Positions 22,575 to 48,871 of a DNA stretch of 64,000 nucleotides are shown here, piece after piece; the stretch's first letter is position 1; each line of letters starts with the position of its first letter. Where the stretch lies: contig CM097886.1 in assembly GCA_044892525.1 (NCBI GenBank), positions 141,112,001 through 141,176,000 of the forward strand. Direction: 5' to 3'. Below the pieces are notes generated by a model that saw only the letters and a program-made list of their open reading frames with translations, searched no databases and was not told the DNA's origin. This stretch comes from Schmidtea polychroa. Its lineage: Eukaryota. The position numbers and the translations under genes were made by a program.

Positions 22575-25500
22575 TGTTGGGGTTACACCTCGGCTGACCA
22601 CTCTACCATGTTGACGGGTCTAAGGGTTGATTGTCCATCTCGAATAAAAGGTGCCACCGATTTGTCAACCTGGAGTGAAACCCCACATAACTTTCTTCCA
22701 ACATAGTGCCCGTGAATCACTTCACGTTGGTACTGCACTATGCAGGCGAGACGCCAGCAAGCAGGTGAGCTTCTGCCTTAAAACTACTCCTTGCTGAGGC
22801 CTCGACTTCCCGTTCACGACTGCCGATAGAAGGGCTTACGTCCATTTCCTTACACAACCACTTATCAGGACTCGCTGAATGCAAAGTGGGAATTTCTCAC
22901 TAGATCTTGCGGGTTCTCTACTCAACCCACTTAATTAAAGTCTAATTATTCATGAACGAAGACGTGTAAGACAACAAGATTTATTAATTTCAATGTTATG
23001 ACACAAGGATTCAGCTGTACACTTTACTAACGTTTGTCGAAAGAAGAGAAAACATCATAATCAACATAGATCGGATCCTTGTTCCTCATCCTGACCGCCA
23101 CTGGGATTTTATTGTTTCTCCCATTCAGTGTCGGCGAATAATTCGTCGAGGTTAAAAAACTCGGAAGCGTTCTCTTCCCACATTACGCCAGCGGCTGATA
23201 TGATTCGTGCCGAGGGTCCCGTTGTTAGGTCGATGGACACGTGAGAGTTGCCACCGTTGGTTGAGTCCTCTATTGATGGGATGTTTGGCTTTGCAGTAGC
23301 GCGCTCGCGCTGTCTCTTCTTGCGCTCTGCACGAGAGAGTTGTTTGCGCTTGGGTTTGCTTGAAGATGCCACTTGCAGAAGGGTGACTGATACAGATGGA
23401 CTAGCAGTGGGGGGCTTACTGGTACCCGTGATGACAACATCTGGTCGCTTGGGGGACAATTCGGTTTCGACGCAGTCTCGGCACGGTCTCTTGAACGGTG
23501 AGTTGGATTCGAGGAACGGTTGTGATGAGGCGGAAAGATGTCATCGGCCTCTCGGATGGGAATTTGCACTATTTTCCGGGTTGTAGCCGCCTGCACGTAA
23601 ACCTTATGCAGTGCCTCGGATTGTTCTCTGATTAGACTTCTTTGGGCACGGCTCTCAGATATTAGCGCGTCCCGGCAATGCTCGCTACGATCGAGCTTCT
23701 TTTGGATCTCTTTCATCCGAGCGGGACTAAACCATGTCCCTTCCAGCTCGTCTATCTTCCTCTTGTAACGTCCAATCTGAGTTTGTAGGTCCTTTATCAC
23801 CGTATTTTTATCCGCGCACGAGAAGCACGGCCGTAATGCTGATTTAGTGGTTGGTAGCATGCTTGCTATAAATAATACTAATGAAATGTAGAACATACGA
23901 TTTTAGAATAAATTAGATACGACCTACGGCCATTCGTGGATGCTTGACCGACGAAAAAAAAAAAAGGAAAACTCATTCTACAATCCGGTTTTACCACGGA
24001 TCTTATTTGTTGAAACAATTTATTTAACCAAATGCCATCGGTTTGACGCATGCTATTAACTTTGACTCTCTATTGATCTAACTGTATACATGAGGGGCGT
24101 AATAATTAATAGGGGGTAAATATAATATTGGTGAAACACTATAATAATGCTTTAGTAGAGGGACATTATAGTATGCGACTACACCTTGCTATAAATTATC
24201 TATTTAAATTTATTGCAAACAAATTACTATCGCTATTCTCAACATATTTTTTGATTCGAAATTTGTTATTGGAAGTGCACTTTTAATTCGGTAGTGAATG
24301 TGATTATCTATATTGTCTACCATTTGTCTGAGAATATGTGATGAGTTTACATCAGCCATTACTTGAACACCCTAATGGGATATCTCATCGGTCATAACAC
24401 ATGTCCAAATTTACGGATACTACTGTCGACTAGTTGATTACATTATCGACCTATTGTGAATGTCACGTGTCGCGACTATTATGTATGCTAGTCTGATATT
24501 TTGTGCTCTCACCACATGGATTCGCGTATGGCTACTATCTTATCTCACTCACTTGGTGTATGCCATTTTCACGGTGATTTTATCGATCCTGCTGTCGTAT
24601 GATTTTCTCTGCACAGTGATTTATTTGAGTTATGATTTATGCTACCGCCAGTTCTCATCGCGGAATTTTACCCTTATCAACTTGTGTGAATGACCATCAT
24701 CGTTTGGAAATTTATTGGATCTTTTCAGTGATCGTCGAGGGAATAATGCTACCAAATACTGAAGCATATTACTACTCTCGTCATTCTACTCGGATTTTCC
24801 TATTCAGATGTAATGCCGTCTCGATGAAACCTGCCCTTAGCCATTCGAAATTTTCTCTCAGGTTCAATAATTTGGATATATACAGTGATGACCTGGCTCT
24901 TATTGTAGAAATAAATGTTATTAATTAAATTTGGTGATATTTTACCTGTTTATAATTTTTGAAATAACTAAGTCTATAAAAACTTTCTGATTATAATACT
25001 AGAGAGGTTTTCGTAGAATCTCGCATTTTATAGTTTCGAGTTAGTTAAAGTTTTTAGAATACTTTCGTAACTTGACATACAATCTGGACAGGTTAGATGA
25101 CATTGGGTCTATGATAACGGAATTTCATACGAAATTAGTTCTACTGAGTCCGGCAAATAGACGTTGTCGCAATTAATTTGATAAAACCATGTTTCCAGAT
25201 GAAGTGTACTATGAGATGTTGTTATTTTTGACGAAGTTCACTAAATCGTGGTCTGGATCTCTTTTTTCAATAGGGGTAAGATTTACGAAAACGACTTGAC
25301 GAAAGAAAAAGGAATGCGACGCCCTCAGTCACTGTGCAAATCCTTGAAAATCCCTTCATTCGTACGACTATCTCTGTGAAAATCATTGTCTGCCAGCGAT
25401 TCTTTTAACCATGACCCCTTGTGATAATTTAGTCGCATCTTCAGCGATAGGACCCGTGAAGAAGCCTTCACATTTCGGCCCAATCTAGCTGCGTGATTGA

Positions 25501-26445
25501 AACACTCCATGTCCACCGGCTGAGCTCCCGAAGGCACCTCATACCATGACATGGAGTATCTCAACTCCACGTTACTCGTTAAATGAAAATTCATAAAATC
25601 TTTAATTCAAATAAAATACGGACATCTGGATAAAAATATTTTATTAATTCTGAAATACTTAGATAATACAAATTCCATCAATACATTAAAGTTATAAAAA
25701 TGGAGAATCAAATGAAGAGAGTTAACCAAAATGTTTAATCGTTAATATTTACCATTACTATTAGCTTTACAAATACTTAAATAAATCTATAAACAAATGA
25801 ACTACCCCTTACTATTGTTTAGGCTGAGTCAAAATTCAATGTTGTTCGTTCCAAATAGTTTGAATGGTGGTCCGTTGGATGTCGATTATTGTGATGAATG
25901 GTATTTCGGTCTCTGAACTGGTTTTGAATAGTCGTGGAGTTTTCTGAATGACGGTTGCTTGGCTAGTAGTGTCGATCCTATGAAATGCTCGGGGTTAACA
26001 GTAAAAACAGTAAACATTTTTCTTACCTATGAAATGCTCGGGGTTAACAGTAAATTTAATGTTTTTGGTAGTTGTATATATATCAAATTCTTATTTGTGC
26101 GGACCAATCAGAGTTGAGTACCGCTTATTTCTATTAATTTAATATAATTTTCTTGTTTTTAGGTTGTTTTTTCCTTATTTTCTTTATTTTTAATATGTTT
26201 TTCTATTTATTTCCTTAATTTCCTTATTATTTCTTGAATTCCTCTTTATTTATTTGTCAACTTGTTCTATTTTAATCTTTTCTTAATTTTATTTTTTGTT
26301 TTAATTCTTATGTCTTAATTATTATTTTCCTTATATCTTATTCTATTTTATTTCTGATTTTATTTATTTTATTATTATTTTTCTTAATGTTCTACTTCCC
26401 TACTTTCTTATTTCTCAACGATTAAATTCTCGACTCAGCCCAACA
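22575..26445 (-). repeat. 3' LTR (3871 bp)
   Basis: TGTTGGGGTTACAC...CAGCCCAACA. Differs from 48879-52750 by a 1-nt deletion at about 23510 and substitutions at about 23580 and 24913 (differences found by eye). Confidence 0.97.
23109..23896 (-). pseudogene. 3'-LTR copy of the LTR-encoded ORF, frameshifted
   Basis: Split into 208-aa and 116-aa ORFs by ggtgagttgg, versus ggtggagttgg in the 5' LTR. Confidence 0.85.
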
Positions 26446-26675: not shown

Positions 26676-27344
26676 TTATGAACTGTTAACCATTGATGCT
26701 TCTGCTGGCGGCTGTTGGTTGGTTTGGGTATTGATGTTGAGATAGGTCTGACTATTAGATTTCGGCTGGATTGGTTGATTACTCGGGGTTCGAGGTCGGA
26801 ATGGGGTTGGGTTAAGATTTGTCAGGGGCACTTCTTGAGGATTTTGGTTCGAGGTTACTCTTATTGATGTCGAGATTCTACATCTATTTCGAATTTCGTA
26901 AATTTTCATGAATATTGGTAGACATAGGAGGAGGGTCTCTGCGATCACCACATATATGAGATAATGGGTGTCATTGATCTCGGGAGGTGTTTTTGGCTTT
27001 TCTACAAGATTTTCAAAATCCTCTTGTTGCATTTGTTGTTCCAACTGGTCGATCTGTTGGCTTTGTTCGAAGATTTGTTTGTTTATCATTTTACAATTGG
27101 GGTTCTTTTTACACATTGTTTGGATGTTGTTGATGTGGGATCGGGTTGATTGAATGGTTTGGATGATATGGGTTTTCACGGTCATAGGGTATGTGCATTT
27201 GCCGGATTCTTGTTTAGGTTCTTGATTTTGATTGCGGTAATCTCGTACGATTTTCGGTTGGGCGTTTAATTGTTTGTTCTCCATCAGAATCATCAATACC
27301 ATCATTGTTATCATCATCTCGCCTCGCATGATACTATTATACAT
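26676..27344 (-). CDS. Element accessory ORF: putative type I membrane protein (222 aa)
   Basis: Hydrophobic N-terminus MMITMMVLMILM, Cys-containing helical ectodomain, TM-like YLIYVVIAETLLLCLPIFM and a Pro/Gln/Asn-rich tail. Confidence 0.7.
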   Translation of the reverse strand: MYNSIMRGEMMITMMVLMILMENKQLNAQPKIVRDYRNQNQEPKQESGKCTYPMTVKTHIIQTIQSTRSHINNIQTMCKKNPNCKMINKQIFEQSQQIDQLEQQMQQEDFENLVEKPKTPPEINDTHYLIYVVIAETLLLCLPIFMKIYEIRNRCRISTSIRVTSNQNPQEVPLTNLNPTPFRPRTPSNQPIQPKSNSQTYLNINTQTNQQPPAEASMVNSS

Positions 27345-27384: not shown

Positions 27385-28137
27385 TTAATGGTTCTGATTT
27401 GGATTATTTTCACCGATTCTCATCAAGGTGGACTCTGCTTTAATTACCCTGTGTCTTAACTCGGGCAGCATTTCCAATTGTCGGTCTTTTTCACGGGCTT
27501 CTCTCTTTAGATGTCTAATTTCTTTTTCCAAGCGTCTAATTTCTTCCCTTTTCTTTTCAAGGTTTCTTTTTAGCTCGATTTGTAGGAGATCTTGTTCGTT
27601 TTCTTGCAGGTAATTTTGTTGTTGATGTTTTCTTTCTATTTCTCTATATTTGCGGACCCACTTCCTCATTTCTTTACTTTCCCGTTGGTTTTCTTCTAGT
27701 TGTCGTTTTAATTTATTTATAGCTGTTTGGCGCTCCTTCGCCTCAGTTTTCCAGTAGTCTTGGATTACCTCCTTTGCTTTGAAGCTTGCCCTCTCTTTCC
27801 ATAGCTCTTCCGCTATCTTTTCCCAGTTTTTCCCTCGCTTCCTTTGTTCGTGTAGCCATTCATTTTCCTCTTCCGTTTCTCTTTTTATTTCCCCCAACGC
27901 TTCGCACTCTTTCTTTAACACCTTTATCATTTTCCGGTCCTCCAGGTATTTGTTTATTAATCTTCCGTTTTCGTATTTCTCTTCCCGTAACTCGGCCTTT
28001 AGCGTTTGGGTTTCTGTTGTTTCTGCCTCAATCTCTCCCTCTTCTACGTCGCTCATAATTTCTATCGTTTCCTCGATTTTCATATCTATAATATGTACAG
28101 TTAATGGTGCGCTATAGTGCGACTTATACGTATACAT
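27385..28137 (-). CDS. Element accessory ORF: coiled-coil protein (likely start 28083)
   Basis: 250-aa ORF rich in E/K/R with heptad-like periodicity. Confidence 0.75.
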   Translation of the reverse strand: MYTYKSHYSAPLTVHIIDMKIEETIEIMSDVEEGEIEAETTETQTLKAELREEKYENGRLINKYLEDRKMIKVLKKECEALGEIKRETEEENEWLHEQRKRGKNWEKIAEELWKERASFKAKEVIQDYWKTEAKERQTAINKLKRQLEENQRESKEMRKWVRKYREIERKHQQQNYLQENEQDLLQIELKRNLEKKREEIRRLEKEIRHLKREAREKDRQLEMLPELRHRVIKAESTLMRIGENNPNQNH

Positions 28138-28251: not shown

Positions 28252-29361
28252 TCATACGAAGGTTTCCTCCTGGCCTACATAACCTTCATCACTATCGACC
28301 GCGGGATGTAACTGTATCGCAATAGGGTCGTATGGTAGGTAATATTGGGGGATTTGAGCTCTCAATTCATTAATTTCGTCTCTTAGAGCTCGAGTGATGT
28401 TCAATTCCTCGTCGAGCAGATAGGTGAGATACCTTGTCTCTTCGTCTTTCGCCTCTATCTGTTTGTCTAGGGCCTTGATTTTCTCGTCGCCCTTCCATTT
28501 TTCAATTTCTATTTCTAAGTTTTTAATATTTTCGGTGTACATTTTCCTTTCGTTTTCTAATTTTCTGTTTTTTCCCGCTAGGACCATGTTTCTTTGTTCC
28601 AGCGATCCTTGTAATCCATTAAGGTCTCTTTTCATCTCTTCTACCTGATTTACTAATTCCACAACCCGTCCCGCTTGTTGGGTTATCATCTCTTCCATTG
28701 CGGCATTCTCGTGCTCTCTTATGTCGCACTTCATTGCCAAATGTCGCTCAAACTCCATAGCCTTTGTTTGCCAGGTTTGGCTTCGGGCGGCGACCTTTCT
28801 CAACCTTTTTAATTCTTCCTTTATTATTAAATTCTCCTCCCATTTACCTTGTTCGCTTTCATATCCGAGTCTCATGGGCAATTCTTTCATCTCTTTTTTC
28901 ATTTCTCTGTTTTGTCTTTTCCATTTTCTCGCTTCTGCCACTAAGTGCATCATTTTCCTGTCTTCTATTTGTTTTTCCGCTTCGCGCTTGGTGTTCTCAT
29001 CGGTAAGTCTTTTTCTCGCTTCCTGCACTAGCTGCTTTAAGTAGTGGCTGTGTGCTTCTTGGCGGGTATTTTCTAGTGACGCCCATTTTGATGCTCTTTT
29101 GCATGCTTCTGCTTCCGCTCTTAAGTTGTGTATTAACCATTGGTATTGACTATTCTCATCTTCTCTAGTTTCTTCGATGTGATTTCGGGTGAGATTAGTT
29201 AGTTGGAACATTACTTTGTTCCATTTTTTATTATGTTCTCGGGGAATTTGTGTCTTGTTGACATTGGTTGGGGCTATCGCAGTTTCGGTTATTTTCTCTT
29301 GTGTCATCTCTAAATCATAGACATCGATTAATCTTTTATTATGAAAAAGGAATTTATTCAT
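28252..29361 (-). CDS. Element accessory ORF: long coiled-coil protein (likely start 29307)
   Basis: 369-aa E/K/R-rich helical ORF. Confidence 0.75.
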   Translation of the reverse strand: MNKFLFHNKRLIDVYDLEMTQEKITETAIAPTNVNKTQIPREHNKKWNKVMFQLTNLTRNHIEETREDENSQYQWLIHNLRAEAEACKRASKWASLENTRQEAHSHYLKQLVQEARKRLTDENTKREAEKQIEDRKMMHLVAEARKWKRQNREMKKEMKELPMRLGYESEQGKWEENLIIKEELKRLRKVAARSQTWQTKAMEFERHLAMKCDIREHENAAMEEMITQQAGRVVELVNQVEEMKRDLNGLQGSLEQRNMVLAGKNRKLENERKMYTENIKNLEIEIEKWKGDEKIKALDKQIEAKDEETRYLTYLLDEELNITRALRDEINELRAQIPQYYLPYDPIAIQLHPAVDSDEGYVGQEETFV

Positions 29362-29499: not shown

Positions 29500-30888
29500 T
29501 TATTCCGTTCTACCCTTCTCCTCTTTCCTCACGGTCATCTTGATATATATGGTATCATTTCTCGCCATATCTTCCACTCTTTGTTGTGAGATGAACGTGG
29601 GTGCTCCTGTTGCTGATCCTTCTTCGTTGAGGGGCCTCTGGTAAGCTATTTGATTCCCCGTTGTTTTGAAGCTTTGCTCATGTATACTTTGGTTGTTCAT
29701 CAGAGTAATATCGATTTTTGCCTGGAACGGCCATTCTAATATTTCGTCGTATTCTCCTTTACATAACAGAAAGAAAATCGAAAAGTGCGTGTTTAATCCG
29801 GTTCCGTCCCCGTTGGGATATATCTTCATTTTCATTTTGTACCCATTTTTCCAAGAGTGGAATGTAGGACTTGTTATTCTTGTCTCTTCTCCGGTTTTTG
29901 CTTTTCGTATTCTTTCTTTTACTCCCGTTATTTTCCATATGTAGGGTGCTGTTGGGGTTATCTCATTTAGATTTATTTCCCGTATTTTCTGATGTAGCTC
30001 CTTGGCCTGATTATTACTGATTTCTGTTCGGTTTATTTGCATCTTTATGTTTGCTCGGGCTTCTTCGAACGCTTTCCTTTCTTCTAGTAGTTCTTTGACT
30101 AACACTTTCAACGATGTTATCTCTATCTCCATTTGTTTTACTTTCTCTTCGCTTTCTTGTAACGCAGTCGACCACATTTCTGCGTGAGTTGAAGCATTTT
30201 CTACTAAATGATGTGGTAACTCACCTCGGTGTAGTAATTTCTGACAACCCCATCTACCTAGTACACATGTCATTCTTTTCTTTTCGCATTCCCTTAGATG
30301 CTGTGCCACCTTCATTATTTCCCCTTGGTTACATCCGTTTGGGCATTCCCCACTGAACTCCGCACATACTCTCTCCTCTTGGACATTGTGATGTTTGAGG
30401 GTGAGATTTATCCACGTATCTATTTCTCCACAGTGTTCACATCTTTCTAATCTCTCTTCACACTGCTTTTGATGTTCTTTCTCTTCGCTTGCTCGAATGG
30501 TTTTATGGCACCTTTCACACTGGCCAATTCTGTACATACATTCTCCCATATGTTGTACTACCTTCCATATTACTCCTTTCCATTCGCATGGGGCATTTTT
30601 GCATCCCAGGTTGGTGTTTAACATGTCTTTCACTGCGGCTTTATCCTCGTTAGTGTCTTCTAAACTCGATATTAGTGTCTCTTTACACACCGGGCACCTC
30701 TGTGGTCTATTCTTTATTGCTTCACTGATACATTCTTTACATACTCTGCATCCACATTGCGTTTGGTGAGGTTCCTTTAACAGCTTTTCACATATTCCGC
30801 ACGTAACATGTTTGTGTATTCTGATCGTTGTAGATTTTCGGACTTGCTCGACAATCTCTCTGAACTCTTCTCTTTGTCGTTTATCCAT
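29500..30888 (-). CDS. TRAF: TNF receptor-associated factor (TRAF2/3/5-like), full length, carried by the retroelement
   Basis: N-terminal RING (CGIC...CGCRVCKEC...CPVC), TRAF zinc fingers (CKNAPCEWKG...HMGEC; CPNGC...HLREC), coiled coil and MATH domain (YIWKI, SPTFH, GYKMKMKIYPNGDG, HFSIFFLLCKGEYDEILEWPF, DTIYIKMTV). No introns. Confidence 0.93.
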   Translation of the reverse strand: MDKRQREEFREIVEQVRKSTTIRIHKHVTCGICEKLLKEPHQTQCGCRVCKECISEAIKNRPQRCPVCKETLISSLEDTNEDKAAVKDMLNTNLGCKNAPCEWKGVIWKVVQHMGECMYRIGQCERCHKTIRASEEKEHQKQCEERLERCEHCGEIDTWINLTLKHHNVQEERVCAEFSGECPNGCNQGEIMKVAQHLRECEKKRMTCVLGRWGCQKLLHRGELPHHLVENASTHAEMWSTALQESEEKVKQMEIEITSLKVLVKELLEERKAFEEARANIKMQINRTEISNNQAKELHQKIREINLNEITPTAPYIWKITGVKERIRKAKTGEETRITSPTFHSWKNGYKMKMKIYPNGDGTGLNTHFSIFFLLCKGEYDEILEWPFQAKIDITLMNNQSIHEQSFKTTGNQIAYQRPLNEEGSATGAPTFISQQRVEDMARNDTIYIKMTVRKEEKGRTE

Positions 30889-30973
30889 TCTATAATTATA
30901 TGTACAAATAGTTCTTATCGATACAGGTTCGATATTTTATTTACAATTATTTACATTTTAAGCTAGGTTTGGT

Positions 30974-31357
30974 TTAGGGTTCGGAAGAGTCGGCTTCGTG
31001 TCCGCTCTCCTCTCTATTCATTAGCCATTCCGACCAGTCTTCTATTTCTGTCTGTTCTGCTTCCTCCATCATTCTGTCTATTTCAATTTCCTGTCGACGG
31101 CTATATTGGGTTATCCTCTCTATCTCTCTTTGCATTTGTTCGATTTTTACCCTCTGGTCTTCAATTATCTTCAAATAACTAAATCCTCTGTTCATACTCT
31201 CGATCAGGTTTCTGTGCATCGTCAGTCCTTGTTCTTGCAAATTGGACACTAATTGTGCTAATACGGCACATTGTTGCTTCCATAATTCTTCAGTTACTGT
31301 ATTGTGGTTCATTTCGTTATTTCCTTGATCCATTCCTAATTTATATACACTTTTCAA
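30974..31357 (-). CDS. Element accessory ORF: small coiled-coil protein with acidic tail (likely start 31333)
   Basis: 127-aa ORF in the same sense as the others, bounded by short AT-rich spacers. Confidence 0.65.
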   Translation of the reverse strand: MKSVYKLGMDQGNNEMNHNTVTEELWKQQCAVLAQLVSNLQEQGLTMHRNLIESMNRGFSYLKIIEDQRVKIEQMQREIERITQYSRRQEIEIDRMMEEAEQTEIEDWSEWLMNREESGHEADSSEP

Positions 31358-31494: not shown

Positions 31495-34400
31495 CTATAT
31501 ACGTGAGTTTGGAGGGCGCTGAACGTTCCAGGCCTCCACCCACTGTTCTTGTTTGATATCACTTGGTCGTTTCACTCGATGTTGGAAGTTTCTGATTCGG
31601 GTCATTTCTAGTTCTCCGCGATGTCGTTTATCTTTAATTATTTTTATTGTTCCCCCCGTTATGATTAGGAATGCCCCTGTTATTATTATCCCACTGATCC
31701 ACATCATCTGCTTCACGCTTATACTCTCTGGTTTTTCCTTGTTTGTTAATGTTGATATCGCTTCTGTACTTTTCTCGTTTCCTCTTTTGCCATTTCCTTT
31801 CATCATTTCCCGTATTCTTGCTATTTCCTCGTTCATACCCTCCTTTGCCATCTTTTGTATTTTTTCCATCTCTTCCTCCGAAACATAGTTGTCCTGAGCT
31901 TCCTCACCAGTTTTCTTGTGCTTTCCTCCTTCGTTCTTTTCGTCGTGGTTTTTTCTTTTCTTTCCTCTTTTCCCCGGGTATCGTCGGCATTCTCTTTTTG
32001 ATTCGTTTCTCCAGATACAAACCGTATATTCCTTCGGGGGCTGCTGCTGCGTCACATATTGATGGCATCTCTCACCCGGTCCTAATCTTGAAATACAGAC
32101 TTTGTGCTCTTTTCTTGGTTGGAGCTGCGTTATTGCTACTTCGCCACCTTTTCCTAGGTGTACCTCTTTTCCTTTAACGTTCGTTATTCTTTTCCCGTCT
32201 CGGTTTCGGTATGCTTCTTGTATTCTTACTTCTGTTATTGGTTCTGTGTCCTCATTTATTAGTACTAGTTTCTGATACGCTCTAGACATACATCTTCCTA
32301 GTATGCACCTTTCCTTTAAGTCCCATTCTTCCTTTAAGTCCCACTGCTGCTCTTGTGCTTGCTTTTTCTTTTCTTGTTTTAGTTCGTCCTCTTTGCTATC
32401 TTGATTCTCCGCTTCTTTGGTTTCTTTTATCGTCCTCGTCCCTCCATGAGCTGTTACTAACTCTATCATGGTAAGCATAATTATCATTAATATCATATTT
32501 GTCTCTATTTCTTTGTTAGTGAAAGGTAGGCATACCCTCTGTTTTCCATTATTCGGTTTTTCCTCCTCTTTGGTCTTAGTTCCCGGGCTGTTTCCCTCTC
32601 TTTTCGTATCCGAATCCTTGTTTTCCGGTTTACCCTCCTCCTGTTCTCTTTTCTCTTTATCCTCCTTTCGGCCTTTTCCGTTATTGTCATCGTGTTTATC
32701 TCCCCCGCTGTCGTTTAAAATGTCGTCCTCGACATTTATATCGTTCAATAATCTGCGATATGCTGTTAGCACTCTGTTTCTTGCTAATTTTGCTTCGAAT
32801 TCAAACTCTTTTCTACCCGTTGCAGCATGTCTCTTTCTATTCCATTCTTTAACTAACTCTCTCAATTGCATACGACGATGTTTCCCAATTCGTTGTTGCT
32901 CGTTCTGATTTTGCGTGAATTTTAGGTCTTCTCTATTTAATACTATTAAAATTATTTTAGGTGTCCCCCCTTTAGTTAGGGTATTCTTTACCATCGCATT
33001 TTCTCCGTTTTCGTAGAATTCGTTTACATTTATCGCATATTTATTATTTTGTGGTACTCTCCAGGTTAATAATAATTTCATTGCTTCTAGATTTTTCCGT
33101 ACCGTATTCCATTGAAACTGAGATGTGTTTTTGCACATATTTTCAACTTCTTCTTTTGTCGCATTTTTGCAAATAAATCTGATCATTTCTAAGTTTGGCT
33201 GTATGGTTGCCCAGTCCAAGGTGGAATTTCCTTCATTGGACTTTTCGTCTAGTTTCGATCCTGATTGATGTAGGATGTGGAGTGTTTTTGGGTGTATTTT
33301 CGTTATAGCTGCATACATCATGGCGGTTTCACCTTGTTCATTTTTCGTGTTGGTTTCCTCGCCCATCTCTCCAAGGATTCTCACGATCGTTATTGCTCTA
33401 TTTTCTTTCGCCGCTAGTATTGCTTGTTGTAGGGGTGTTCTGGAATCCTTCGTTACCATCGTAAATGCTCGAGGCAAGAAGGTTTTGATTTTCCCGATAT
33501 CTAAATCCGTGGTTTGATCTCTTGCGTATGTGTGTACGGTTTTTATTATTTTGGACAATATTATTTCGTCTGGCAGCTCTAGCATTTCCTCAAAGAACAC
33601 TTCTTTTGCTTTGCGTATTATTGCCTCTTGATCTATACTCATTGATTTGGTTTCGATGACGTTGTTTGTGACCGTTTGGTTCGTTGTTGACTTTGATTCC
33701 CTGGATTTCTCATACCTTATTTTCGTTTTCTTTCCGTTTGGATTATTGATTCGTTCCTCTGCTGTAAGTATTTGGATAATATTCAGGTAATTCTCGCGGA
33801 TGTTATTCATTGTGTCCATCATATATAACACACTTACCGTTTCCCAATATTTATTTCGTACTTGGTTAGTAAATTGGAATAGGGATTTTTCGAATGTGTC
33901 GATTCGCTTTTTTGCTAACTGTTCGTCTTTATGATTTGTGAATTTTATCCCTCGTTCTAGTAATTGATTCGGGATTTCGAATAACTGATGTCCTTTCATA
34001 GCTTCTCTCATCAGCGTGTTCTCTCCTCTCGTGAACGCTTCGTTTACGTTGATCATATAATCGTTTCGAATTGGATTTCTCCATGTGATTAATATTCCGG
34101 TAATTGTCGTCAGTTTTTCTTTGATCGCTGTTAACAATCCATCATACATGTTTCCGACTTCCCGATTGTCCTCATATGATAGTAGTTCCATCAATGACGT
34201 GAACGCCTCGGTACTTCTCCCTTCGATAGCATGGTGTAGAGCGTTTTTCCGCTCGTGGTCTTGTGTAGTTATTTTCGATCCGGTATCGAGTAACGCGGTT
34301 ATAATGTCTTTTGTTTTACCTCTGTTTGCGGCTATCATTAATGGTGTGTAACCTTGGTTGTTTGTTTGTTCTGTTGATCGCTTGCAGTCGTGAAATGCTT

Positions 34401-37400
34401 CTATTGTTTCTAGTATTTGCTCGTTGTTACCTACTTTCATGAGTTTGTGTAATGGTGTGTCTCCGTAATGATCTGTTATTGTAAATAATATTGGCCATTG
34501 GCTTTTGACTACTCGCAATAATGGGTGTGTCCTTTCTCTATTTGCATAGTTCTCGATCATCGTCAATAATCCTCCTAATATTTCGAAATCTAATCGATCT
34601 TTTGCCCATCCAGGTATTTTAATTTTTACCTCCTTTACAATCTTTTCCGCTTCTGATGGTTGGATACCTAATCGTCCAGTGATCGGTTCTGCGAGTTGCT
34701 GCATCATGTTCATTCGGTAGGTTTGCGAACGTGTGGTTAATGTACGGCCTTCTGGTTGACTAGTGGCTGTTTTTGGAATTGATTTGCATCGTGCCACGTT
34801 TACGTATATTGGTCTGGTAAAGGGGTTATTTACCAATTTCACTCTTACATTAGTTTCGCCTACGAATAAGATCTCATATGGTCCTTTTCCGTTGCGTTGT
34901 AACTTTTTTGTGGTTCCTGGAATTAATTCCGGGGTTTCTATCATTACCCAATCACCTGTTTGGAACGTATGTTGCTTCACGTTTTTCTTTCGATCGTGTA
35001 AATCTTTATAACTTTCCTGGTAGAACTTGATATTTAATCCCGCAGTTTCCCAAATTTCTTGCATTCTTTCCTTGAATTTCGTAACATAATCATCGATCTC
35101 CATATACTGCGATATCGGTGGTTGGTATTCCAGGTCCATTGGCATATTACATTCTCTTCCGTACATTAATTTGAATGGGCTCATTTTCGTTGATGCGTGA
35201 ATCGACATTCTGTACGCCATAAGACATAGGTTTATATATTCGTCCCAATCTCGTTGGTGACGGTCAACGTAGTTTGATAACATTTGTATAAGTGTTCCAT
35301 TAAATCTTTCCGTCATCCCATTGGTTTGAGGGTGGTATGGAGATGTTCTTAGTTTTGCTATTTTGAAGTAATTTGTTACTTCGCTCATTATCTCACTCAT
35401 AAAATTTGTTCCCTGATCGGTTAAGATTTGTTTTGGTGTTCCATATCGGCAACATATCTCTTCTACCAAAATTTTTGCGATTGTTTTAGCTTTTTGGTCT
35501 GGCATCGCGAATGCTTCTGGGAATTTCGTAAGAAAGTCTGTGATCACCAGAATGTAAACGTTTCCTTTATCTGACTCTGGTAGTGGACCAACTACGTCCA
35601 TGGATATCATTGTCATTGGTTCTATTGGTACTGGCATTGGCGTTAAAGGTGCTTTCCATTTCGATCCCGTATTCTTCCTGGTTGCACAAGTTAGACAATT
35701 TTTTACCCATTCGGTTACATCTTCCGTTAACGTAGGCCAAAAATATTTCTGTTTCATTCTTGCTAACGTCTTTTTCGATGACATATGTCCTCCCAATCTC
35801 CCATCGTGATATTGCGTTAGTAACTCTTTTCGTCGGTTTTCCGGTATACACATTAATCGTTTTTCCCCATCCATTATCAGCAACCAATCTTTCTCTATAA
35901 TATATCGGTGTCGGTGTTTATCCATATGTTCTTTTAATTTTTGGTCTTTCGCATATACATCTGTCTTTCCGGTTTTTACATAATCGATAATTTGTTTTAA
36001 TTCCGCGTCCTCTTGTTGGTCCTTTCGTAATTGACAGAAATCCAAATCTTCCGCTACTATTAAGCATATGCGTTGCATTTCTGAATCCACCAAATCTGGG
36101 AAAATAAATCTTGACATACAATCGGCGTTGGCATTTGCTCTTCCCGCTTTGAATTTTATAAATGGGGAGTATTCTTGCAATTGCATGGCCCATCGCATCA
36201 GTCTACTGGACGCTTCTTTATGTTGCCCTAACCACACTAATGGTTGATGATCCGTGGTTATGCATATCTCATGTCCCCATAGTAAATATCGGAAGTGTTT
36301 GATAGCTTGTATTATAGCCAATGCTTCTCGTTCTGTTACCGAATAGTTCTTTTCGTGCTTTTTGAATGTTCGACTGTAATACCCGATTACTCTCTCTTTT
36401 CCCTCATCGTCTAATTGTCCCAGAATCGCGCCTGCCGCGTACCCGCTTGCATCCGTTGCCAATAGAAATGGCTTCTTAAAATCTGGGTGTACGAGGATAG
36501 GTGCTTCGATTAGTTTATCTCTCAGCGTTTCGAACGCCTGTTGTTGTTCTTTTTCCCAAATGAACGAAATATCCTTCTTTACTAATTCCTGGATTGGTTT
36601 TGCAATTCCTGCATAATTTTTGATAAATTTGCGATAGTATCCGCATAATCCTAGAAATTCCTGAACTTGGGTGACAGTTTTCGGTGCTGGACATGTTTTT
36701 ATTTTCTCAATGTTTCTTGGATCTGGCTCCTTTCCTTTAGCTGACACTATGTGTCCTAAAAACGTGACTTTTTCCTTTGCCCAATCGCATTTTGATGGTT
36801 TGAGTTTGAGTTTCCACTGTCTTAATCTAATAAATACGTTTCGGATATCTTCTAGATGTTGTTCAAATGTCGCTGAATAGATTAGTAAATCATCAATATA
36901 TACCATACATTGTTTGATTCCATGGGTGACAAAGTTCATACACCGTTGAAATGATGCTGGTGCGTTAGTCAGTCCAAATGGCATTTTCCTGAATTGATAT
37001 AGATCTCGTCCCAACGTGAAAGCTGTTTTCTCTTTGTCCTCATCTTTGACTTTAATCTGCCAGTATCCACTTTTTAGATCTAAAGAAGTAAAATATGCTG
37101 CCCCTTGCAACATCAATAACATCTCATTGATGTCCGGCAATGGATAGGTATCTCTCTTGGTCACTGCGTTTAACTTCCGATAATCGATACAGAATCGTTG
37201 GGTGCCATCTTTCTTTTTTACCATGACCACTGGGAATTGCCAAGGTGAGCAACTTGGTTCGATTACTTTTGCGTCTAGCATCTTTTGTACTTCTGTTTCG
37301 GCTATTTCTTTCTGCATTTCTGCTAGCTTGTATGGTCTCAATGCAATTGGGGTTTCGTCTATGAGTGGTATTGCATGTAAGGTAACATCACATGTACCCA

Positions 37401-40400
37401 AGTCTAAATCTGAGATGGCGAATATATCTTTATATTCTACCAACAATCGGTGCAATTTTTTCTTTTCGTCATTCGTCAACAACATACTATCTATTGTCCA
37501 TAATTCATCATCTTTGATCATCTCGTTGGTCACTTTCGGTAATTCTATGTCCATCATTGGGGTCAATCTTCCCAATTTTTCGTTCTCATAAATGATTTTG
37601 TCTTCCTCTTCGAAATTCGTGATGTTGAGCGGTATCACTCCTTCTTGGTTTATTGTGATTATTTCTCTCGCGAGTGGTAATTCTCGTCGCTTTTCGAATG
37701 ACTTGCTTGGTTCAAAGATAACTTCTCCTTCCATACCCGTATCCACTTTTATCTGACAAATCATCTGCGATTTTGCTGGTACTATTATTTTTTCTGGACA
37801 TCTGATGACTGCATTCATTTTGCATATTCTACCGGTTTTGTCTTTTAAACACATGGTTGTTAAGTCAATTACGACTTCCTTTAACAATTCTGGCATCAAA
37901 TCCGTTCCGATTATGCATGGTACGCTAAGTTTTGGTATTACTGCCAAATACGTTTCAATTTCGTTGTCCTGGTATCTCAATGTAGTCCACCATCTTCCGA
38001 CCACGTCCACTGTTTCTTTACTACATGCTATAATGTGAATTGTTGTTGATTCGATATCCTTCCAGTGTTTACTGGGGATTTGATTAATCGCTATCGCTGA
38101 TACATTAGCTCCGGTGTCTATCATAGCATTGGTTTCTTTACCATTGATTTGAATCATAACTGTTACTGCTGGACCTCCAGGTAAACTCATCGCTGCTATT
38201 GTTCTTACGTCATCTGCTTGATCTACACTTTTGGTACGTCGTGTTGGCATATAATGCATACCGGGTTGACTCGGTAATTGCGGATACATATTTTGTGTCA
38301 TGGTCAAAGCTGTTTGTGGTCCCACGATATCCGGTGGTATATAGCTTCCATTGGCGATCCAGGTGTTTGTCTTTTCCTTTTCCCAATATGGTGCCGTTTC
38401 CATTGGTTTTTCGTTTGGGTTTCTGTTTGGATAAAGACATTTATCGTTCCCGTTATCATCGTCGTCACTATCGCTGTTAGATGATTGGCTTCTAAATCGG
38501 TCCAAGAATTTTGGCTTATTCTTTTTCAATTGTCGTCTTGTCGCTTCATCGTACATTACTTTCCGGAATCGTCTGCCTACTTCCTCGTCGGTTCCTTTAA
38601 TCTTTGTTAATATTTTAATCAATCGCTTTATCCGATGAATGTCTTTTGAGTGGCCATGTAATACCATGGTCTTAGCTAAAAATGGTAAGAAGCCTACTAT
38701 CATTTTCCAATTAACTTTCTTTTCCCGCTTGTATATATCGAAACAAGCTAACATTTGTGTTAGTATTACTCTGACTATCTGAATTATGAGTATGATCCCT
38801 AATATCCCGGCCATCATTTGTCCAAAAACTAAGAATCTTCCCCACATTGCTTTCATCATGTTTGACGTAGCTTGTTGAAAATGGTCTGGCGATAATAGCA
38901 GCTCGTAATTCGGGCCTGATTGATAGTTTGTGCCCCCAGTTATTGTTACCATATTAGACAAAATGGATTCTCGTCTGGCTGGAAAGAGTACGTTAAGTCG
39001 TGCTGTTTCTAGATCTTCCGGGGAATACATACCACCGTTTGACACGTCTATAGGTTTGAAATCCAGCTCTGTGGCGAGTTCTATTAATCCAAATTTCTTG
39101 GGCTCCTCGGATATGGTTTTTCCCGGTAACATCATCCATTTCCCATCGGGCCTTTCATATAAAGGTCCGTATGCATTAGAACAGTTAAAGAGATTTGGGT
39201 AGAAACCCACTGGATTCATAATTCTAGTGACTGGTTGGACGAATCGATTTTGTCCTTTATAACGGATTTCTAATTCATTTGCACATCTCTTTTCGGGTAG
39301 TATGGATTTTTCTGGCATTCGTGCATACGTCTTGGTACACTGGTATGTGTACATCACTTCTCCTACCATTCTACCAAAGTGTCCATCTGGTAATGGGAGT
39401 GATGGCATCGTGTTATCTGGGTGCGTTATCGCAATAGCTAGCTTTGTTTTCAATATTTCTTTATTCAATGAACAATCGTTTTGTATCAGATCGTAATATA
39501 CTTTTTGCAAGGTCGTTTGTCCACGATGAAATAGAAAATCCATTTTATTATTTGCATATAAGTATAGTTTTACGTCCTCCGTTGCTATCTTTCCCACTGC
39601 TCTATCGATTATTTGTCTCGACATATAGATGCCTGCGTAATTGGTTTTATATACTATACTGTCACATTTGGTGGTTTCTTTCTCTTTGATAAACCTCATA
39701 CCTAGATCTGGATCGTCTGTGATTAATGCTGTTGGTGTCTTCTGCGTTGAAAGTCTCTTTTCTCTGGGAGATGGTGGCATTGGTTTTCCATTTCGCATCC
39801 TCACTCTGTCGTTTCCATCCTCGTCGTTCTCGTTCTCATATATTTCTCCTTTTACTTCATTGAACAAAGCACTTTTTAACAGTTGGAGTCGGCATTTTTG
39901 GGTATTAGCTTCATAGATTATAGTTGATACTCCTGTCCTACATACGTTTTCTGTAGCTCTACACGCTGGGTTGGTCTTCATTTGGTAATTATTTGCGTCA
40001 AATTGCGCTTCGTATTCTTTTAATTCGACCGTGTAAGACTCGATCACTACAACTCCCGATATTACCTCGCCTCGGATCGTATACGTACCTCCGTTACATG
40101 ACCCATCTGATGATTTTACTTTTCCGGATACGTAAACACTTTCGGTTTTAATCATTCCAGTTTGTCCGTGAATTGTCACTCCGTTATGCATTTTTAGCGC
40201 TCCGGTTCTAAATAGCTCTTTACAATCCTCTCGTTGTATTGATACGATTTCTTTATCCAGACCGGGTAGTATAAGAGTCGAATACGAATATTGTCCACAG
40301 TAATATGCGAGTACCTTTTTTGATACTACGCATTCCCTTGCTTGCGTTCTGATGAAATCTGATTCTTGATATACATGGTAAGTAACTTTTGTTCTCACGA

Positions 40401-43400
40401 TGTCCAATTTGTTGGGTGAGGCTTGTCTGCATTCTTCTATGTCTCTCAATGAGTATTTATCTCTCATTATCATGTTATCACAATCGTAGATGGTGAAACC
40501 TGTTGCTCCACTTGTGCACAACATCCATATCATCATAGTCATCATTAACGAATTTATTGATGCTTTTCTGCTTGCGGGATCTTTCATCGGTAGTTCCCAT
40601 TCTAGTTCATTTAACAATTTTTTCAATCTAACTTGCATCGACCTTTCTTGCTCATTTTTCCGTGGCGCTTGTATCAGTCTTTTCCATCCTCCTGCACGAA
40701 TAATGTGTGGTTCAATAGTATTCTCTATGATTGAAACGGTCATTTCTACATGATTTGCAAACTGTTTATTTGGTATTTTCCTCGCAGCTAGTCCCATCAA
40801 ATTATACATCAAATAAGTGATTACCACTAGGTGATGCTCGTCATCATTTGCATTTGTCGTGAGCTGCTCAATCACTCTCTTTGTTTCGTCCCAATCCGTT
40901 TTGGTGGTTTTCGTTTTCTCTTTGATTAACTTTGGGATTATCCCCGAAATGGTGTGCCATAATTGTCTAGCTTCCGTACTGGCTACTTTCCGTTGCCACA
41001 AACGTCTAAGTTGTGGGTTTGTTATTATTAACATATCTTTTAACAATTCTCGTATCCATTTTTCTCCTCTTTCGATCGTTGGTTGGGCTTCCTTTAGATC
41101 CCATACTATTTTATCCAATTTTTCTAATCGAACTTGCCCTTGTTCTTGCTTTAATTGTTCTTTGGTTTTGAACTCAGACTTTTCTCCTTGTTTCTTGGGT
41201 CTTCCTTTTGCCCGTTTTTCCATCATCGTTCCTGCTTCTCTGGTATTTTCGTAATTCGGATTTCTTTCGTTATCCGTTCTGGGTAATGAGCTATCGTTAT
41301 TTCTTAGCCACTCATTCCATTCGTCTATTATTTTGTCGGTTTGACTTTCTGGTGTTACTTTCGTTGGTTCTCTTTGCTTCTGGAATTGTTCATCCGTTTC
41401 GGTTTCCGTAGTATTGTCGATGATTTCTTTGATGTTTAGTTTCGTGGGTTGTTGATAACTCGTTGATGGCTGGTTGTTAGTCCACATTTCGGCTCCTGTC
41501 GGCCATCTTACTAATAGCGGTGATCTTTCTCCTGATTCATCGTCACTATCTTCCAGGATTATCTCTTCAACTTCTTCAGTTTCATTAGATTTACTTGGTG
41601 CTTTGTTCGGACTTGGAGTACTCAAACTGCCTTTTGTTGGTTTAATAATTTTACTTTTCCTTTTTAACGGTTTTCCCAACGTTTCTGCCATTGTTAATAC
41701 ATTTGTCTCTTCCAATCTCATGGGTGTTATCCCGACGTCTGCATTATCGTCTAGTGATTTTCCGAACAGTTGCAGATGGAATGGAGTTTCATATGCTAAT
41801 TTCTTTTTTAATTCTCTAATTTTTGTTGTTGGATGCACCTCTAGTTCCTCGATGCTCTTGTCCGGATACTTGATTCGGATGTGATACCTCTCCTGGGTGT
41901 CTTGTGCCCATTCCTGATTTCTCCATTTTCGAATAATTTGTTCTAGCTGTTCTGGATACCATTCATTATATTGCCGGTATTCCTCTATTGCCTTTGCCAT
42001 TCCTCTCAGATTGTGGATATTCTCTGATGTCTTTAAGATGATGTTAGCCAACGCTACTACTTGGCGTTTTTGATTTTTCGCTCCCATTGCTAAGATATCG
42101 CCTAATTGTTTATACCTTTCTGTCTCTTCTCGTTCTCTTGCTTCCGTCGCTTCCTCGCCGTCCATATCAGCATATTCCCGTTCCTTTTTCCTCATTGCAT
42201 GAATATGTCTCGCTTCATTTTCGCTTTCTGATGTGACATCCGTCTCGCTTTCGTCATCTGATGTCTGTCCCCTTGCTTCCTCTTCATATTCTGGGGGTTC
42301 CTCTTCTTCTTCCTCCGATTCACTTTCTGTCTCACCGATGTCTGTTTCTACGAAGGTTCCTTTCCGGATTTCCCATTCCTTACTTTCTGCATTCCACACT
42401 CTTTCCCATGGGGTTCGTCTGCAAGATCTGGTATTTAATTTCGTGATTTTTCCTTGTAGCTCTTTTTCTTTTAACCATTGTTGGTGGATTTCAATTATTT
42501 CTGTAGATTTTCGATATAACGTTTTCATCCGGTCTCGTATTTCTTTTTGATATGTTACATCTCTTGTTCGGAATTCATCCATTGGTACTATCCTGATTAT
42601 CTGATGATTGTCCCACATACCCATTTCGCTTAACGAGGTGTCGTCCTCCGTTCGTAATATTATCTTATCGTACATCATGACTACATCATCCACCATACCA
42701 TCACTACTTTCGCTACGTACCTTTTCCGTTATCTCTTGGTTTATTTTTGATACCAAGTCATCCACTGTACTCTGATTGCTCATTTTTATTCGTCGTTTTT
42801 CTTCGTTCGGTAACCATATGGTTATTTCTAACCTCTGTGGCTGGGTTTCTTTTAACCTTCCATATTTGTGGATCAAATTTATGGTTCTCCAATCACTCAT
42901 TCGGAGCATTTCTGTATCTCGCAACCGGCTCATTAGTTCGTACATGGCTGGGGCTCGTCTGGTGATGAGTAAATCCCAGTTGTCTTCTACTTGTTCTTGA
43001 ATTTGTTTGATCAGCTTATCCAGGTTTCGTCTCAGAGTACATTGTTTTATTTGTTCTAATTTCAATTTGATATTAAAATCATATTCTGCCTTGGCATCTT
43101 TAGCCCAATCGTAAAGGTTGGCTGGTTGTTTTTCTTTATGCAACTTCAGTATTTGCGTTTCTCCTGGCCATATTAGTGCATCTACTAAGTGCATATCTGG
43201 TTTGATCTGTTCTCCTTGGTATTGATACAGATATTCTTTCTTTCTCGACCTTCCCAAATGTTCTCGTATCCAATCGAAAAGTTCGTCGGTGACTGTATTT
43301 TTTATCCACATTCTTTCAAGTCCTCTACTCGTTCCAATTTTTATTACATACCGCGTGGTATCGGCCTGCTTCATTTTTTCCATATAATTTTTTATACTTG

Positions 43401-45348: not shown

Positions 45349-46659
45349 GATTGGTGTTCTAGGTTCGTCTGTTTCTTTTAAATTGTCTAACGATGTGATT
45401 AAACTTTGGGCTGATAATTCCTCGGTTGACGTTGCTAAACTATTAGTGATATCGGACAGACTTTCTCTACTTCGAGATCGACTAGGGGTATATCCGAGAT
45501 TTTCTTGGTCGAATATGGGTACTTGATTGGTTCTTCTGGATCCTTGTGATATTCCTCTTTGATGTTTAATGGATCGTCCTCTTTTGAGTTGTTGTAATTC
45601 GTCTCCTGAAAATTATACGTCTCCGGGCTTACTAGAAGATCTAAGATTGGGTTTATCCGTGATTCCTTTCTTACGCTTCTTGGTAATTAGCGGCTATTGA
45701 ATTGGACGCGTTCGGTTCTGATTGTGTTTCCTTCGATAAATATTCTGTATGAATCTGCTACTGAGATCCTGAGGAGATTTACTAATCCTTGGCAGATGGC
45801 TGCTAATACTTCTTCCGTTCTGGAGTCTTCCGGTTGCTGTGTCTCTCGGTGCGGGTTCTGAATGGATTTATCCTTGGTTGATTGTCGATTTTCTTCGAAT
45901 TCCTTTTGTGCAGGTTCTGGATTGTCTTGGTTGGCTGGATTGGCTTGATATCTAAAATGAAAAAATGATCTCGTGTTGCATTTGCTTACACGACTTCATC
46001 ATTCTTTCTACAACATTCAAAAACAGACACCTTTTAGGTTTCTGTTTGTGCTTCCCCTATCTTTTGTGAAATCCTTTCTGCGGGTTATAATATCCCATCA
46101 GCCCGTATTTTCCGTCGATTTTAAATTATCTATATGGGGTAGTAACAATTATCTATAAAGTCGTAATAATTATCTATTCGTTATCAATTATAGTAAAAAT
46201 AGGTCGTTGTCGGTCTCTGCTTATTACCCCCCTTCGTTTTCTTATTCCTTTGCGCTGTTGTCGCTGTTTTACTTTTCGTATTTACTATTATCCCACTCGG
46301 TACTACTCTGGAACCGATAAACATACATTTTCCCGGTTTACCCAAAAAAAAATTCCGTAGAGTTTCTCTACTTCACTGGGATCCCTTTAATTAGTTAGTT
46401 ACTTTCCTCTTTACTCATTATCATTGTTTCATCTATTCTTTATTTTCTATTATCTCTTTAATTCGTTTCCTTCTTCCCTTTCCTTTTTCCTTATAATCTT
46501 ATTTTCTTTTCCACGAGCTCGTTTATTTCCTCTCTAAACTCGAATTTTCAAAATTACATTCAATTTGTTCTAGCTAGCTTTAATATTCCATATCACTAGT
46601 AATTTAAATATTATCTCATTGTAGCTTAACTGCTATCTCTCGCTTTTCTAGGCCTTTAC

Positions 46660-47470
46660 GACTGGCTGGCAGCTCAATCTTCTTCTCAGCTCAATCTTCT
46701 TCCTTCTGATCGGTTAGACTATTCAACAACTCGATCTTACGACTGGCTGGCACTATTCAACAGCTCAATCTTCTTCCTTCTGATCGGTTGGACTATTCAA
46801 CAACTCGATCTTACGACTGGCTGGCACTATTCAACAGCTCAATCTTCTTCCTTCTGATCGGTTGGACTATTCGACAACTCGATCTTACGACTGGCTGGCA
46901 CTATTCAACAGCTCAATCTTCTTCCTTCTGATCGGTTGGACTATTCAACAACTCGATCTTACGACTGGCTGGCACTATTCAACAGCTCAATCTTCTTCCT
47001 TCTGATCGGTTGGACTATTCAACAACTCGATCTTACGACTGGCTGGCACTATTCAACAGCTCAATCTTCTTCCTTCTGATCGGTTGGACTATTCAACAAC
47101 TCGATCTTACGACTGGCTGGCACTATTCAACAGCTCAATCTTCCTCCTTCCTGATCGGTTGGACTTTTCACAACTCGACCTTACGACTGGCTGGCACTAT
47201 TCAACAGCTCAATCTTCCTCTTTCCTGATCGGTTGGACTTTTCACAACTCGACCTTACGACTGGCTGGCACTATTCAACAGCTCAATCTTCCTCCTTCCT
47301 GATCGGTTGGACTTTTCACAACTCGACCTTACGACTGGCTGGCACTATTCAACAGCTCAATCTTCCTCCTTCCTGATCGGTTGGACTTTTCACCACTCGA
47401 CCTTACGACTGGCTGGCACTATTCAACAGCTCAGTCTTCCTCCTTGACCGGCTGGATTATTCGACAGCTC
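46660..47470. repeat. 74-bp tandem array (about 10 copies plus partials) in the element leader
   Basis: gactggctgg recurs at 46741, 46815, 46889, 46963, 47037, 47111, 47185, 47259, 47333 and 47407. Confidence 0.97.
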
Positions 47471-48853: not shown

Positions 48854-48871
48854 ATCCCGGCTGAGCCCCCA
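48854..48871 (-). promoter_or_regulatory. Primer-binding site, tRNA-Pro type
   Basis: Minus strand TGGGGGCTCAGCCGGGAT versus the canonical tRNA-Pro PBS TGGGGGCTCGTCCGGGAT (16/18), 7 nt inside the 5' LTR boundary. Confidence 0.8.

Follow-up and report, generated by a model that had tools for sequence, protein, structure and literature searches.

The window analysed here is a stretch of 64,000 nucleotides (nt) from the planarian Schmidtea polychroa (assembly GCA_044892525.1, contig CM097886.1, positions 141,112,001 to 141,176,000 of the forward strand). It contains a giant long terminal repeat (LTR) retrotransposon of the Burro/GYPSM1 type, which carries a complete gene for a TRAF (a factor associated with receptors of tumor necrosis factor, TNF). 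The TRAF is under purifying selection in its RING, zinc fingers and MATH domain, and most of the sampled copies of the element have retained it. An earlier description made from the sequence alone (the sequence-only reading) had pointed to this gene; its claims are taken up below with the results that bear on them.

The TRAF gene and its element

The gene consists of one stop-free open reading frame (ORF) of 462 amino acids (aa) and is intronless, as the sequence-only reading had stated. By its architecture the product is a TRAF: RING, zinc fingers, coiled coil and MATH domain are all present, and Pfam, phmmer, AlphaFold2 and Foldseek agreed that they are intact (Table 1). Pfam placed zf-C3HC4 on the RING with 22.2 bits against a cut-off of 21, and MATH_2/TRAF-mep_MATH on the MATH domain with an E value of 2e-27; for zf-TRAF, no match at E<=0.01 was obtained in the 462-aa ORF. 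In the phmmer searches, RING-zinc-finger structures of TRAF5 and TRAF6 aligned with residues 22-155 (E 5e-15), and TRAF1, TRAF2 and TRAF3 aligned with residues 245-454 (E 4e-28), including the coiled coil of TRAF3. An AlphaFold2 model based on an alignment of 80 rows had a mean predicted local distance difference test score (pLDDT) of 93. Its predicted template modeling score (pTM) of 0.51 is as expected, because the chain is elongated and has several domains. A modelled helix of 75 residues (pLDDT mostly >90) leads directly into the MATH sandwich. The top Foldseek matches of the model were the TRAF domains of TRAF3 and TRAF2 (E 1e-18), and the vertebrate TRAF2 and TRAF3 are the best structural matches of the predicted MATH domain, with no single vertebrate orthologue assigned.

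The base composition of the ORF is that of the element, A-rich and T-poor, and unlike that of host TRAFs. T accounts for 0.18 of the ORF and 0.11 of its four-fold third positions, compared with 0.20 and 0.12 in the element polyprotein and 0.27-0.34 and 0.26-0.41 in six host TRAF ORFs. These values confirmed the coding bias that had been noted as common to gene and element. Four contig sets that are only guessed to be RNA covered 26446-46400, one of them wholly, one for the most part and two to a small extent. Among the matches listed, no splice joint and no start at the TRAF ATG was seen, which has no bearing on expression.

The element spans 22575-52750 (30,176 bp). Its LTRs of 3.87 kb have TG..CA ends and are flanked by a 4-bp target-site duplication (TSD), CCTG. 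Because the two LTRs differ at only 3 of ~3,872 positions, the insertion is young. The polyprotein contains Gag, CCHC knuckles, a Monjiviricetes-type fusion glycoprotein (Monjiviricetes_fusion, E 2e-66), protease (PR), reverse transcriptase (RT), RNase H (RH) and integrase (IN) in the order PR-RT-RH-IN, and ankyrin repeats (Ank_2, E 2e-17); no MATH and no BIR domain was detected in it by Pfam. The TRAF is the second of five ORFs between the polyprotein and the 3' LTR, and an ORF with a RING of the inhibitor-of-apoptosis (IAP) type lies upstream.

Burro1-4/GYPSM1 (Jurka 2007; Grohme et al. 2018, as summarised in PMC6431247) are giant planarian Ty3/Gypsy elements of >30 kb with multi-kb LTRs. 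According to that summary, their polyprotein of ~4,700-5,100 aa has the order Gag-Env-Pol, bears ankyrin repeats and includes, in frame, a fusion protein like that of mononegaviruses, their cargo includes MATH_TRAF_C, BIR, ankyrin and BCL2-like domains, and a Dugesia tigrina element has MATH_TRAF_C in a separate accessory ORF (PMC6431247). The kind of element and its MATH_TRAF cargo are therefore already published there. The window element matches this description in its length of ~30 kb, its multi-kb LTRs, its single polyprotein with an in-frame envelope-like domain, its ankyrins and its MATH_TRAF_C cargo. It is a Burro/GYPSM1-type Ty3/Gypsy element, placed by published layout and not by consensus identity, and is not filed as Burro1. 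However, the published passages speak of a MATH_TRAF_C domain only and place it either within ORF1 or within an accessory ORF described as 'upstream' (PMC6431247), whereas in the window element the gene is complete, from RING through zinc fingers and coiled coil to MATH, and lies downstream of pol. No Pfam match was obtained for BCL2-like, SUMO-like or dUTPase-like motifs in the Burro-type elements; this negative covers Pfam only, and the published motifs came from HHpred.

Table 1. Features of the TRAF and of the surrounding element, in positions of the window. Family B is a second Burro-type family described in the text.
Feature	Position	Strand	Basis or remark
Full-length TRAF accessory ORF, 462 aa	29500..30888	-	single stop-free ORF; Pfam, phmmer, AlphaFold2, Foldseek
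RING, aa 30-68	30685..30801	-	Pfam zf-C3HC4, structure alignment
~5 zinc-finger modules, aa 96-235	30184..30603	-	ligands inferred from Cys/His spacing
Coiled-coil helix, aa 232-306, predicted	29971..30195	-	AlphaFold2 model
MATH/TRAF-C domain, aa 316-453	29530..29943	-	Pfam, phmmer, Foldseek
C-terminal MATH segment, codons 351-450, three deeply diverged versions	29539..29838	-	
119-aa accessory ORF directly upstream of TRAF	30974..31333	-	homologue at same place in family B
369-aa accessory ORF on the downstream side of TRAF, composition resembling a coiled coil	28252..29361	-	homologue in family B
250-aa accessory ORF	27385..28137	-	no Pfam family above cut-off
222-aa accessory ORF, two hydrophobic stretches	26676..27344	-	no Pfam family above cut-off
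Polyprotein, 4,617 aa from first ATG	31495..45348	-	Pfam
Tandem repeat array in leader, 74-nt unit	46613..47500	.	
161-aa ORF, IAP-type RING (zf-C3HC4_3) at its end, no BIR	48051..48536	-	Pfam
Primer-binding-site-like 18-mer	48854..48871	-	identical sequence in family B
5' LTR, 3,872 bp	48879..52750	-	TSD CCTG at 52751-52754
262-aa ORF inside 5' LTR	49413-50201	-	
3' LTR, 3,871 bp	22575..26445	-	TSD CCTG at 22571-22574

Each LTR contains a protein-coding ORF, in the 3' LTR at 23270-23902 and in the 5' LTR within 49413-50207, and a one-base indel separates the lengths of 208 and 262 aa. Remnants related to the LTR ORF were seen at 5747-6299 and near 54003-54191. The primer-binding-site-like motif, which we take to be of the tRNA-Pro type, sits 7 nt off the 5' LTR (48854-48878). 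No polypurine tract was seen before the 3' LTR (26446-26470), where both families have a partly complementary motif. Between 27344 and 31500 the accessory ORFs are separated by AT-rich spacers of 40-161 nt, most with AATAAA, and several carry TGTA..ATA..AG right before the ATG. These short spacers raised the idea that the accessory ORFs may be expressed in an operon-like or trans-spliced manner.

Copies, selection and a second family

A protein search of the genome gave 92 scored full-length TRAF matches (from 2,009 candidates) with 94-100% identity, 91 of them stop-free, and element flanks were found at all 30 TRAF loci that were fetched. Since a list based on the TRAF favours intact TRAFs, copies were resampled by their integrase, using the best 150 of 8,807 candidates, a sample that leans towards copies with a well-kept integrase. 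In 85 of the 150 a TRAF from the first list stood at the expected distance, stop-free in 84. The other 65 comprised 41 copies with a full-length, stop-free TRAF (one with an internal replaced segment), 15 with a broken and 2 with a partial TRAF, and 7 whose 10-kb stretch contained no TRAF; all 7 also lacked the upstream neighbour ORF. Altogether, TRAF sequence was present in 143 of 150 integrase-anchored copies and was full-length and stop-free in 125. The sequence-only reading had reasoned that absence from other copies would mark a one-off insertion, and had named neutral evolution as the other outcome that would speak against it. Neither was observed.

Compared with 11 natural copies, the ratio of nonsynonymous to synonymous divergence (dN/dS) of the TRAF was 0.08-0.16, out to saturated dS, with bootstrap upper bounds <=0.27 in the six comparisons tested. 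By domain, the ratio was 0.06-0.12 for the RING, 0.09-0.12 for the zinc fingers where dS was computable, 0.08-0.14 for MATH and, with one exception taken up below, 0.06-0.12 for the coiled coil. Integrase and RT were tighter than the TRAF (0-0.04), and other accessory regions were mostly ~0.1 (0.06-0.35). Among 91 intact copies the corresponding polymorphism ratio (pN/pS) was 0.13 for variants common to several copies and 0.43 for single-copy variants, the pattern expected if selection acts during replication and decay follows. Each candidate zinc ligand was retained in at least 90 of the 91 copies. Also retained were a basic residue and a tyrosine (K/R355 and Y357), which we take to belong to the peptide groove.

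A second family, here called family B, was found through a Pfam MATH search of the genome (best 150 of 1,551 matches). Its members are ~35 kb long with 4.8-kb LTRs (G000:C1:96631283-96666420, loci L066-L070, and L166), and its pol region is 56-59% identical to that of the window family. In family B the polyprotein itself contains a MATH domain, and a separate TRAF of 474 aa stands where the window element has its own; it is 29% identical to the window TRAF and has a dN/dS of 0.12-0.20. The gene was therefore present in the common ancestor of the two families. A gene for a 392-aa BIR-RING IAP lies directly downstream of the family-B TRAF, and upstream ORF, TRAF and IAP occurred together in 23 of 23 family-B loci (20 distinct places). 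Nearly all of the best 150 BIR matches in the genome lie in family-B-type frames. As neighbouring genes they recall the TRAF2-cIAP complex. Prediction of a complex between three copies of the family-B TRAF (coiled coil plus MATH) and the neighbouring BIR, in which the alignment was not used, scored 0.00 and has no bearing either way. Compared by description, Burro1 differs from the window family, which lacks both a MATH domain inside ORF1 and a BIR domain; family B, with polyprotein MATH, TRAF and IAP, fits the published description better.

These data also bear on the possibility that the gene is a neutral passenger or a recent one-off retrocopy. The broken, partial and TRAF-less copies among the 65 re-examined would suit it, but broken copies are expected after insertion. 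A dN/dS of ~0.1 up to saturation of dS, the persistence of the gene in two families whose TRAFs are only 29% identical and the element-type composition all contradict it. We regard this possibility as refuted by the dN/dS of the copies, the pN/pS of shared variants and the retention in family B, and give it virtually no credence.

One part of the gene is much more variable among copies. In 42 young copies, nucleotide diversity was 0.115 over 29500-29799, compared with 0.017-0.069 in the other 32 intervals of the 9.9 kb surveyed; the copies had been chosen for their identity over 31000-32380, a choice that depresses diversity in that interval. Three supported lineages, 13-23% apart in DNA and discordant with the tree of codons 1-340, can be told apart in codons 351-450, and these MATH versions are combined with backgrounds only 1-7% apart (loci L001-L030 and L081-L165). 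Recombination among copies has therefore taken place in the C-terminal half of the MATH domain. The versions differ at K/R355, I/M/L414 and T/S427, positions assigned by structure match to TRAF2, which presumably line the groove; the groove list was mapped from TRAF2 numbering as we take it to be. An enrichment of variable sites in the groove was considered and rejected (7 of 18 groove sites and 56 of 123 other MATH sites, p 0.62). Balancing selection on the MATH versions is offered as a hypothesis.

Relation to host TRAFs

A word-index protein search gave 1 relative and an exhaustive one 6,237 at E<=0.001. Full-length sequences were placed in a quick tree under a mixture model and in a careful LG+G4 tree of 47 author-chosen rows. 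The element TRAFs formed one clade in both, with support of 100/99 and three unnamed database proteins in the LG+G4 tree, and with a Shimodaira-Hasegawa-like approximate likelihood-ratio (SH-aLRT) support of 99 and four such proteins in the quick tree. Proteins P0004, P0001, P0017 and P0022 are of the element type by tree only; in the genome, P0004 had no match above 37% identity among 91 scored. The element clade lies within a planarian clade (100/100) that includes named Dendrocoelum and Dugesia TRAFs. The comparison with host TRAFs that the sequence-only reading had proposed thus placed the element TRAFs inside those of planarians.

Planarian host TRAFs (Dugesia japonica TRAF2-like A, Dendrocoelum TRAF-2/-4/-5, and the Smed-TRAF-2A/B described in passages of PMC7586133) have the domain order, the Cys-for-His RING and the single-ORF structure of the element TRAF and form one supported clade with it. 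The element TRAF differs from them in sequence (27-31% identity), in base composition, in an altered groove and in having >100 mobile copies. The RING motif QCGCRVC, in which Cys stands for the usual His, is present as described earlier, but it is not special to the element. Cys occupies this position in all 9 RING-bearing host ORFs that were matched, in 14 of 14 RING exons of the host cluster described below, and also in named TRAFs of Dendrocoelum and one of a crinoid. On this comparison of sequences, the Cys-for-His RING is inherited and not an innovation of the element.

The proposal that the gene is a retrocopy did not hold as it was argued. It rested on the many introns of a local host gene, and the nearest host exon found in the window (63483-63791) is a piece of a major facilitator superfamily (MFS) transporter, unrelated to TRAF. 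Because the closest host TRAFs are single-ORF genes themselves, an intron loss is not demonstrable. Each of the host TRAFs at L031-L034, L036 and L038, like the two in L080, is a single-ORF gene with no Burro coding sequence on its flanks. A large cluster of short host TRAFs lies on G000:C2 at ~1-5 Mb and 105-124 Mb (L037-L060). In its genes a single exon encodes RING and zinc fingers, the small exons of the coiled coil are repeated in tandem, and the last exon holds MATH, with introns restricted to the coiled-coil region.

The host cluster formed a separate clade (100/99), and its nesting inside the element TRAFs was rejected with full-length sequences (approximately unbiased test, p-AU 0.003). 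Tests on MATH alone, which have low power, did not reject groupings of element and cluster (p 0.16 and 0.53); the MATH-only tree has too little signal, with an element clade of 80/91 that includes the unrelated-looking P0091. No sampled host TRAF nested among the element TRAFs in the full-length trees. Near 44 host TRAF loci or stretches only LTR or 5'-leader remnants were found, never the ORFs that flank the element TRAF. Among the best 150 of 1,551 MATH matches in the genome, 94 were of element type and 56 of host type, as judged by frame length, with flanks checked for a subset.

A single ancient capture of a TRAF is likely and is the simplest reading of these trees. Transfer from host to element is likewise the simplest reading of the direction; the intron-poor planarian TRAF family is the likely source. 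Together with its retention in most copies, its purifying selection and its place within the planarian clade, this agrees with the earlier view that the element took over a TRAF of host type. Seeding in the reverse direction, in which the intron-poor host TRAFs or the host cluster derive from element TRAFs, is improbable. It would account for host TRAFs of this clade being intronless or having introns in the coiled-coil region only, and the MATH-only trees permit it. A tree in which the element TRAFs branch as sister of the whole set of host planarian TRAFs was also not rejected (p-AU 0.45, full-length), a result that counts for reverse seeding and against a firm choice of donor and direction. 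Set against this are the rejected nesting of the cluster and the absence of any sampled host TRAF within the element clade. The host genes moreover lack the A-over-T bias of the element, and their loci lack the TRAF-flanking ORFs.

Elsewhere in the window, a further LTR element with a gag (Retrotrans_gag, CCHC) is represented by two pieces, 1-1876 and 17072-17958, which share ~90% identity. DNA-transposon remnants lie at 4344-4990, 18935-21123 and 62396-63181; two have a hAT dimerisation domain, and one is a long pair of transposase-like ORFs for which Pfam gave no match.

Proposed role and significance

Our preferred reading, to which we assign a probability of about 0.55, is that Burro carries a TRAF kept by selection and likely captured once, which likely serves as a full adaptor tilting death or immune signalling towards survival of the cell that expresses the element. 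The protein would trimerise through coiled coil and MATH, the MATH groove would dock on receptor or adaptor peptides, and ubiquitin-ligase activity would be brought in by its own RING, an IAP or both. These steps are modelled on TRAF2/cIAP biology. In family B the IAP would come from the neighbouring gene, whereas the window family, which has only the BIR-less ORF with an IAP-type RING, would need a host IAP. The element would gain a living, non-alarmed cell for long enough to package and integrate its 26-kb RNA. Host planarian TRAFs are reported to be pro-survival by RNA interference (PMC7586133), and BURRO1 to be transcribed in differentiated tissue upon loss of SMEDWI-2 (PMC8532177).

The sequence-only reading had left the choice between decoy and active adaptor. 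RING and zinc fingers are missing from a dominant-negative TRAF of the classical kind. Because both are conserved here, the whole adaptor appears to matter; with RING and zinc fingers as conserved as MATH, a truncated decoy is unlikely and an adaptor is favoured. In the structure alignment with TRAF6, Ile32 takes the position of Ile72 and Glu34 that of Leu74, a position required in TRAF6 for binding of Ubc13 according to PMC5702613. The Ile72 equivalent is near-invariant among the 91 copies. Because it is kept and Leu74 is not, as in host planarian TRAFs, a TRAF6-like ligase is uncertain and a TRAF2-like scaffold working with an IAP is plausible.

Several observations weigh against the adaptor reading, in addition to the sister placement given above. 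The Leu74 equivalent is Glu or Lys in 91 of 91 copies. In the groove, Q-I/M/L-A/C has replaced the serine-rich stretch S-S-S, so that partners may differ from the canonical ones. In the coiled coil, comparison with the copy at L110 gave a dN/dS of 0.56, on 10 changes. By Pfam, the window family has no BIR-IAP ORF. Purifying selection shows that the element needs the protein, not in which direction signalling is shifted. The one tested viral TRAF, ORF111L of ISKNV, the virus of infectious spleen and kidney necrosis, is reported to promote apoptosis (PMC3352826), and the sign of the effect could therefore be opposite. Like the Burro gene, ORF111L is a host-type TRAF on a mobile genetic parasite, and it alters TNF-receptor signalling; it differs in belonging to a large fish DNA virus (an iridovirus), in being vertebrate TRAF2-like and in binding TRADD (PMC3352826), and the two are likened by family only.

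A full-length decoy is possible, though we think it doubtful. Such a protein would occupy receptor tails, or mix with host TRAFs in trimers and RING dimers, without passing the signal on, and would damp a response directed against the element. The Glu or Lys in the E2 interface would fit, as would the TRAF RING heterodimers described in PMC5702613, the three old, reshuffled C-terminal MATH versions, such as a host-facing surface might have, and the MATH-only module in the family-B polyprotein, a natural decoy. However, RING and zinc fingers are conserved as much as MATH, hardly any copy deviates at Ile32 or at the zinc ligands, and host TRAFs also lack Leu at the position in question, so that this absence is no loss specific to the element. 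Variation, as given above, is not enriched at groove positions.

A role of the TRAF in the element's own life cycle, by ubiquitylation or scaffolding in assembly, trafficking or exit or by removal of a restriction factor, is unlikely. The element does code for an envelope-like fusion protein and for other RING and ankyrin cargo, the TRAF dN/dS of ~0.1 equals that of other accessory ORFs, and a TRAF-like ligase of Dictyostelium is reported to coordinate ESCRT (PMC10181826). This role is less easily reconciled with the retained canonical trimer-adaptor architecture and the K/R-Tyr pair of the groove, and the adjacent BIR-RING gene of family B fits a module for death signalling better.

In the literature found, there was no description of a full-length Burro TRAF, of its selection, of the TRAF-IAP adjacency or of MATH reshuffling; the figures and supplements of Grohme et al. 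2018 may show the full-length ORF. That Burro may meddle with apoptosis and ubiquitination was suggested by Arkhipova and Yushenova (PMC6431247), following Jurka, from domain names only. The selection, copy and tree data turn this idea into one concrete gene that can be assayed alone. Cargo of this sort, a complete and conserved adaptor for signalling, is typical of large DNA viruses but unusual in a retroelement.

For planarian biology, counts of TRAF genes taken from transcriptomes may include element genes, given that 94 of the best 150 MATH matches look element-borne. Reports of 121-282 MATH transcripts in S. mediterranea (PMC7586133, PMC6109357) make no link to Burro in the passages concerned. 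According to passages of PMC6824462, SMEDWI-3 PIWI-interacting RNAs degrade many traf, ankyrin-repeat and E3-ligase mRNAs; these are the domain classes carried by Burro. The real host TRAF expansion is a separate clade and not element-derived. The earlier suggestion that transposon-driven TRAF movement feeds family expansions survives only as a possible inflation of TRAF counts, and is otherwise opposed by the separate host clade and the rejected nesting. In a more speculative and rather unlikely extension, Burro would by itself imitate the complex through which TNF receptors promote survival, with TRAF plus IAP, a MATH-only decoy and ankyrins; its MATH types would be held by balancing selection and swapped in an arms race, and its genes would form part of the TRAF expansion and of the PIWI-degraded transcripts. 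If this arms-race reading is true, hundreds of element genes would lie within the reported planarian 'TRAF expansion'.

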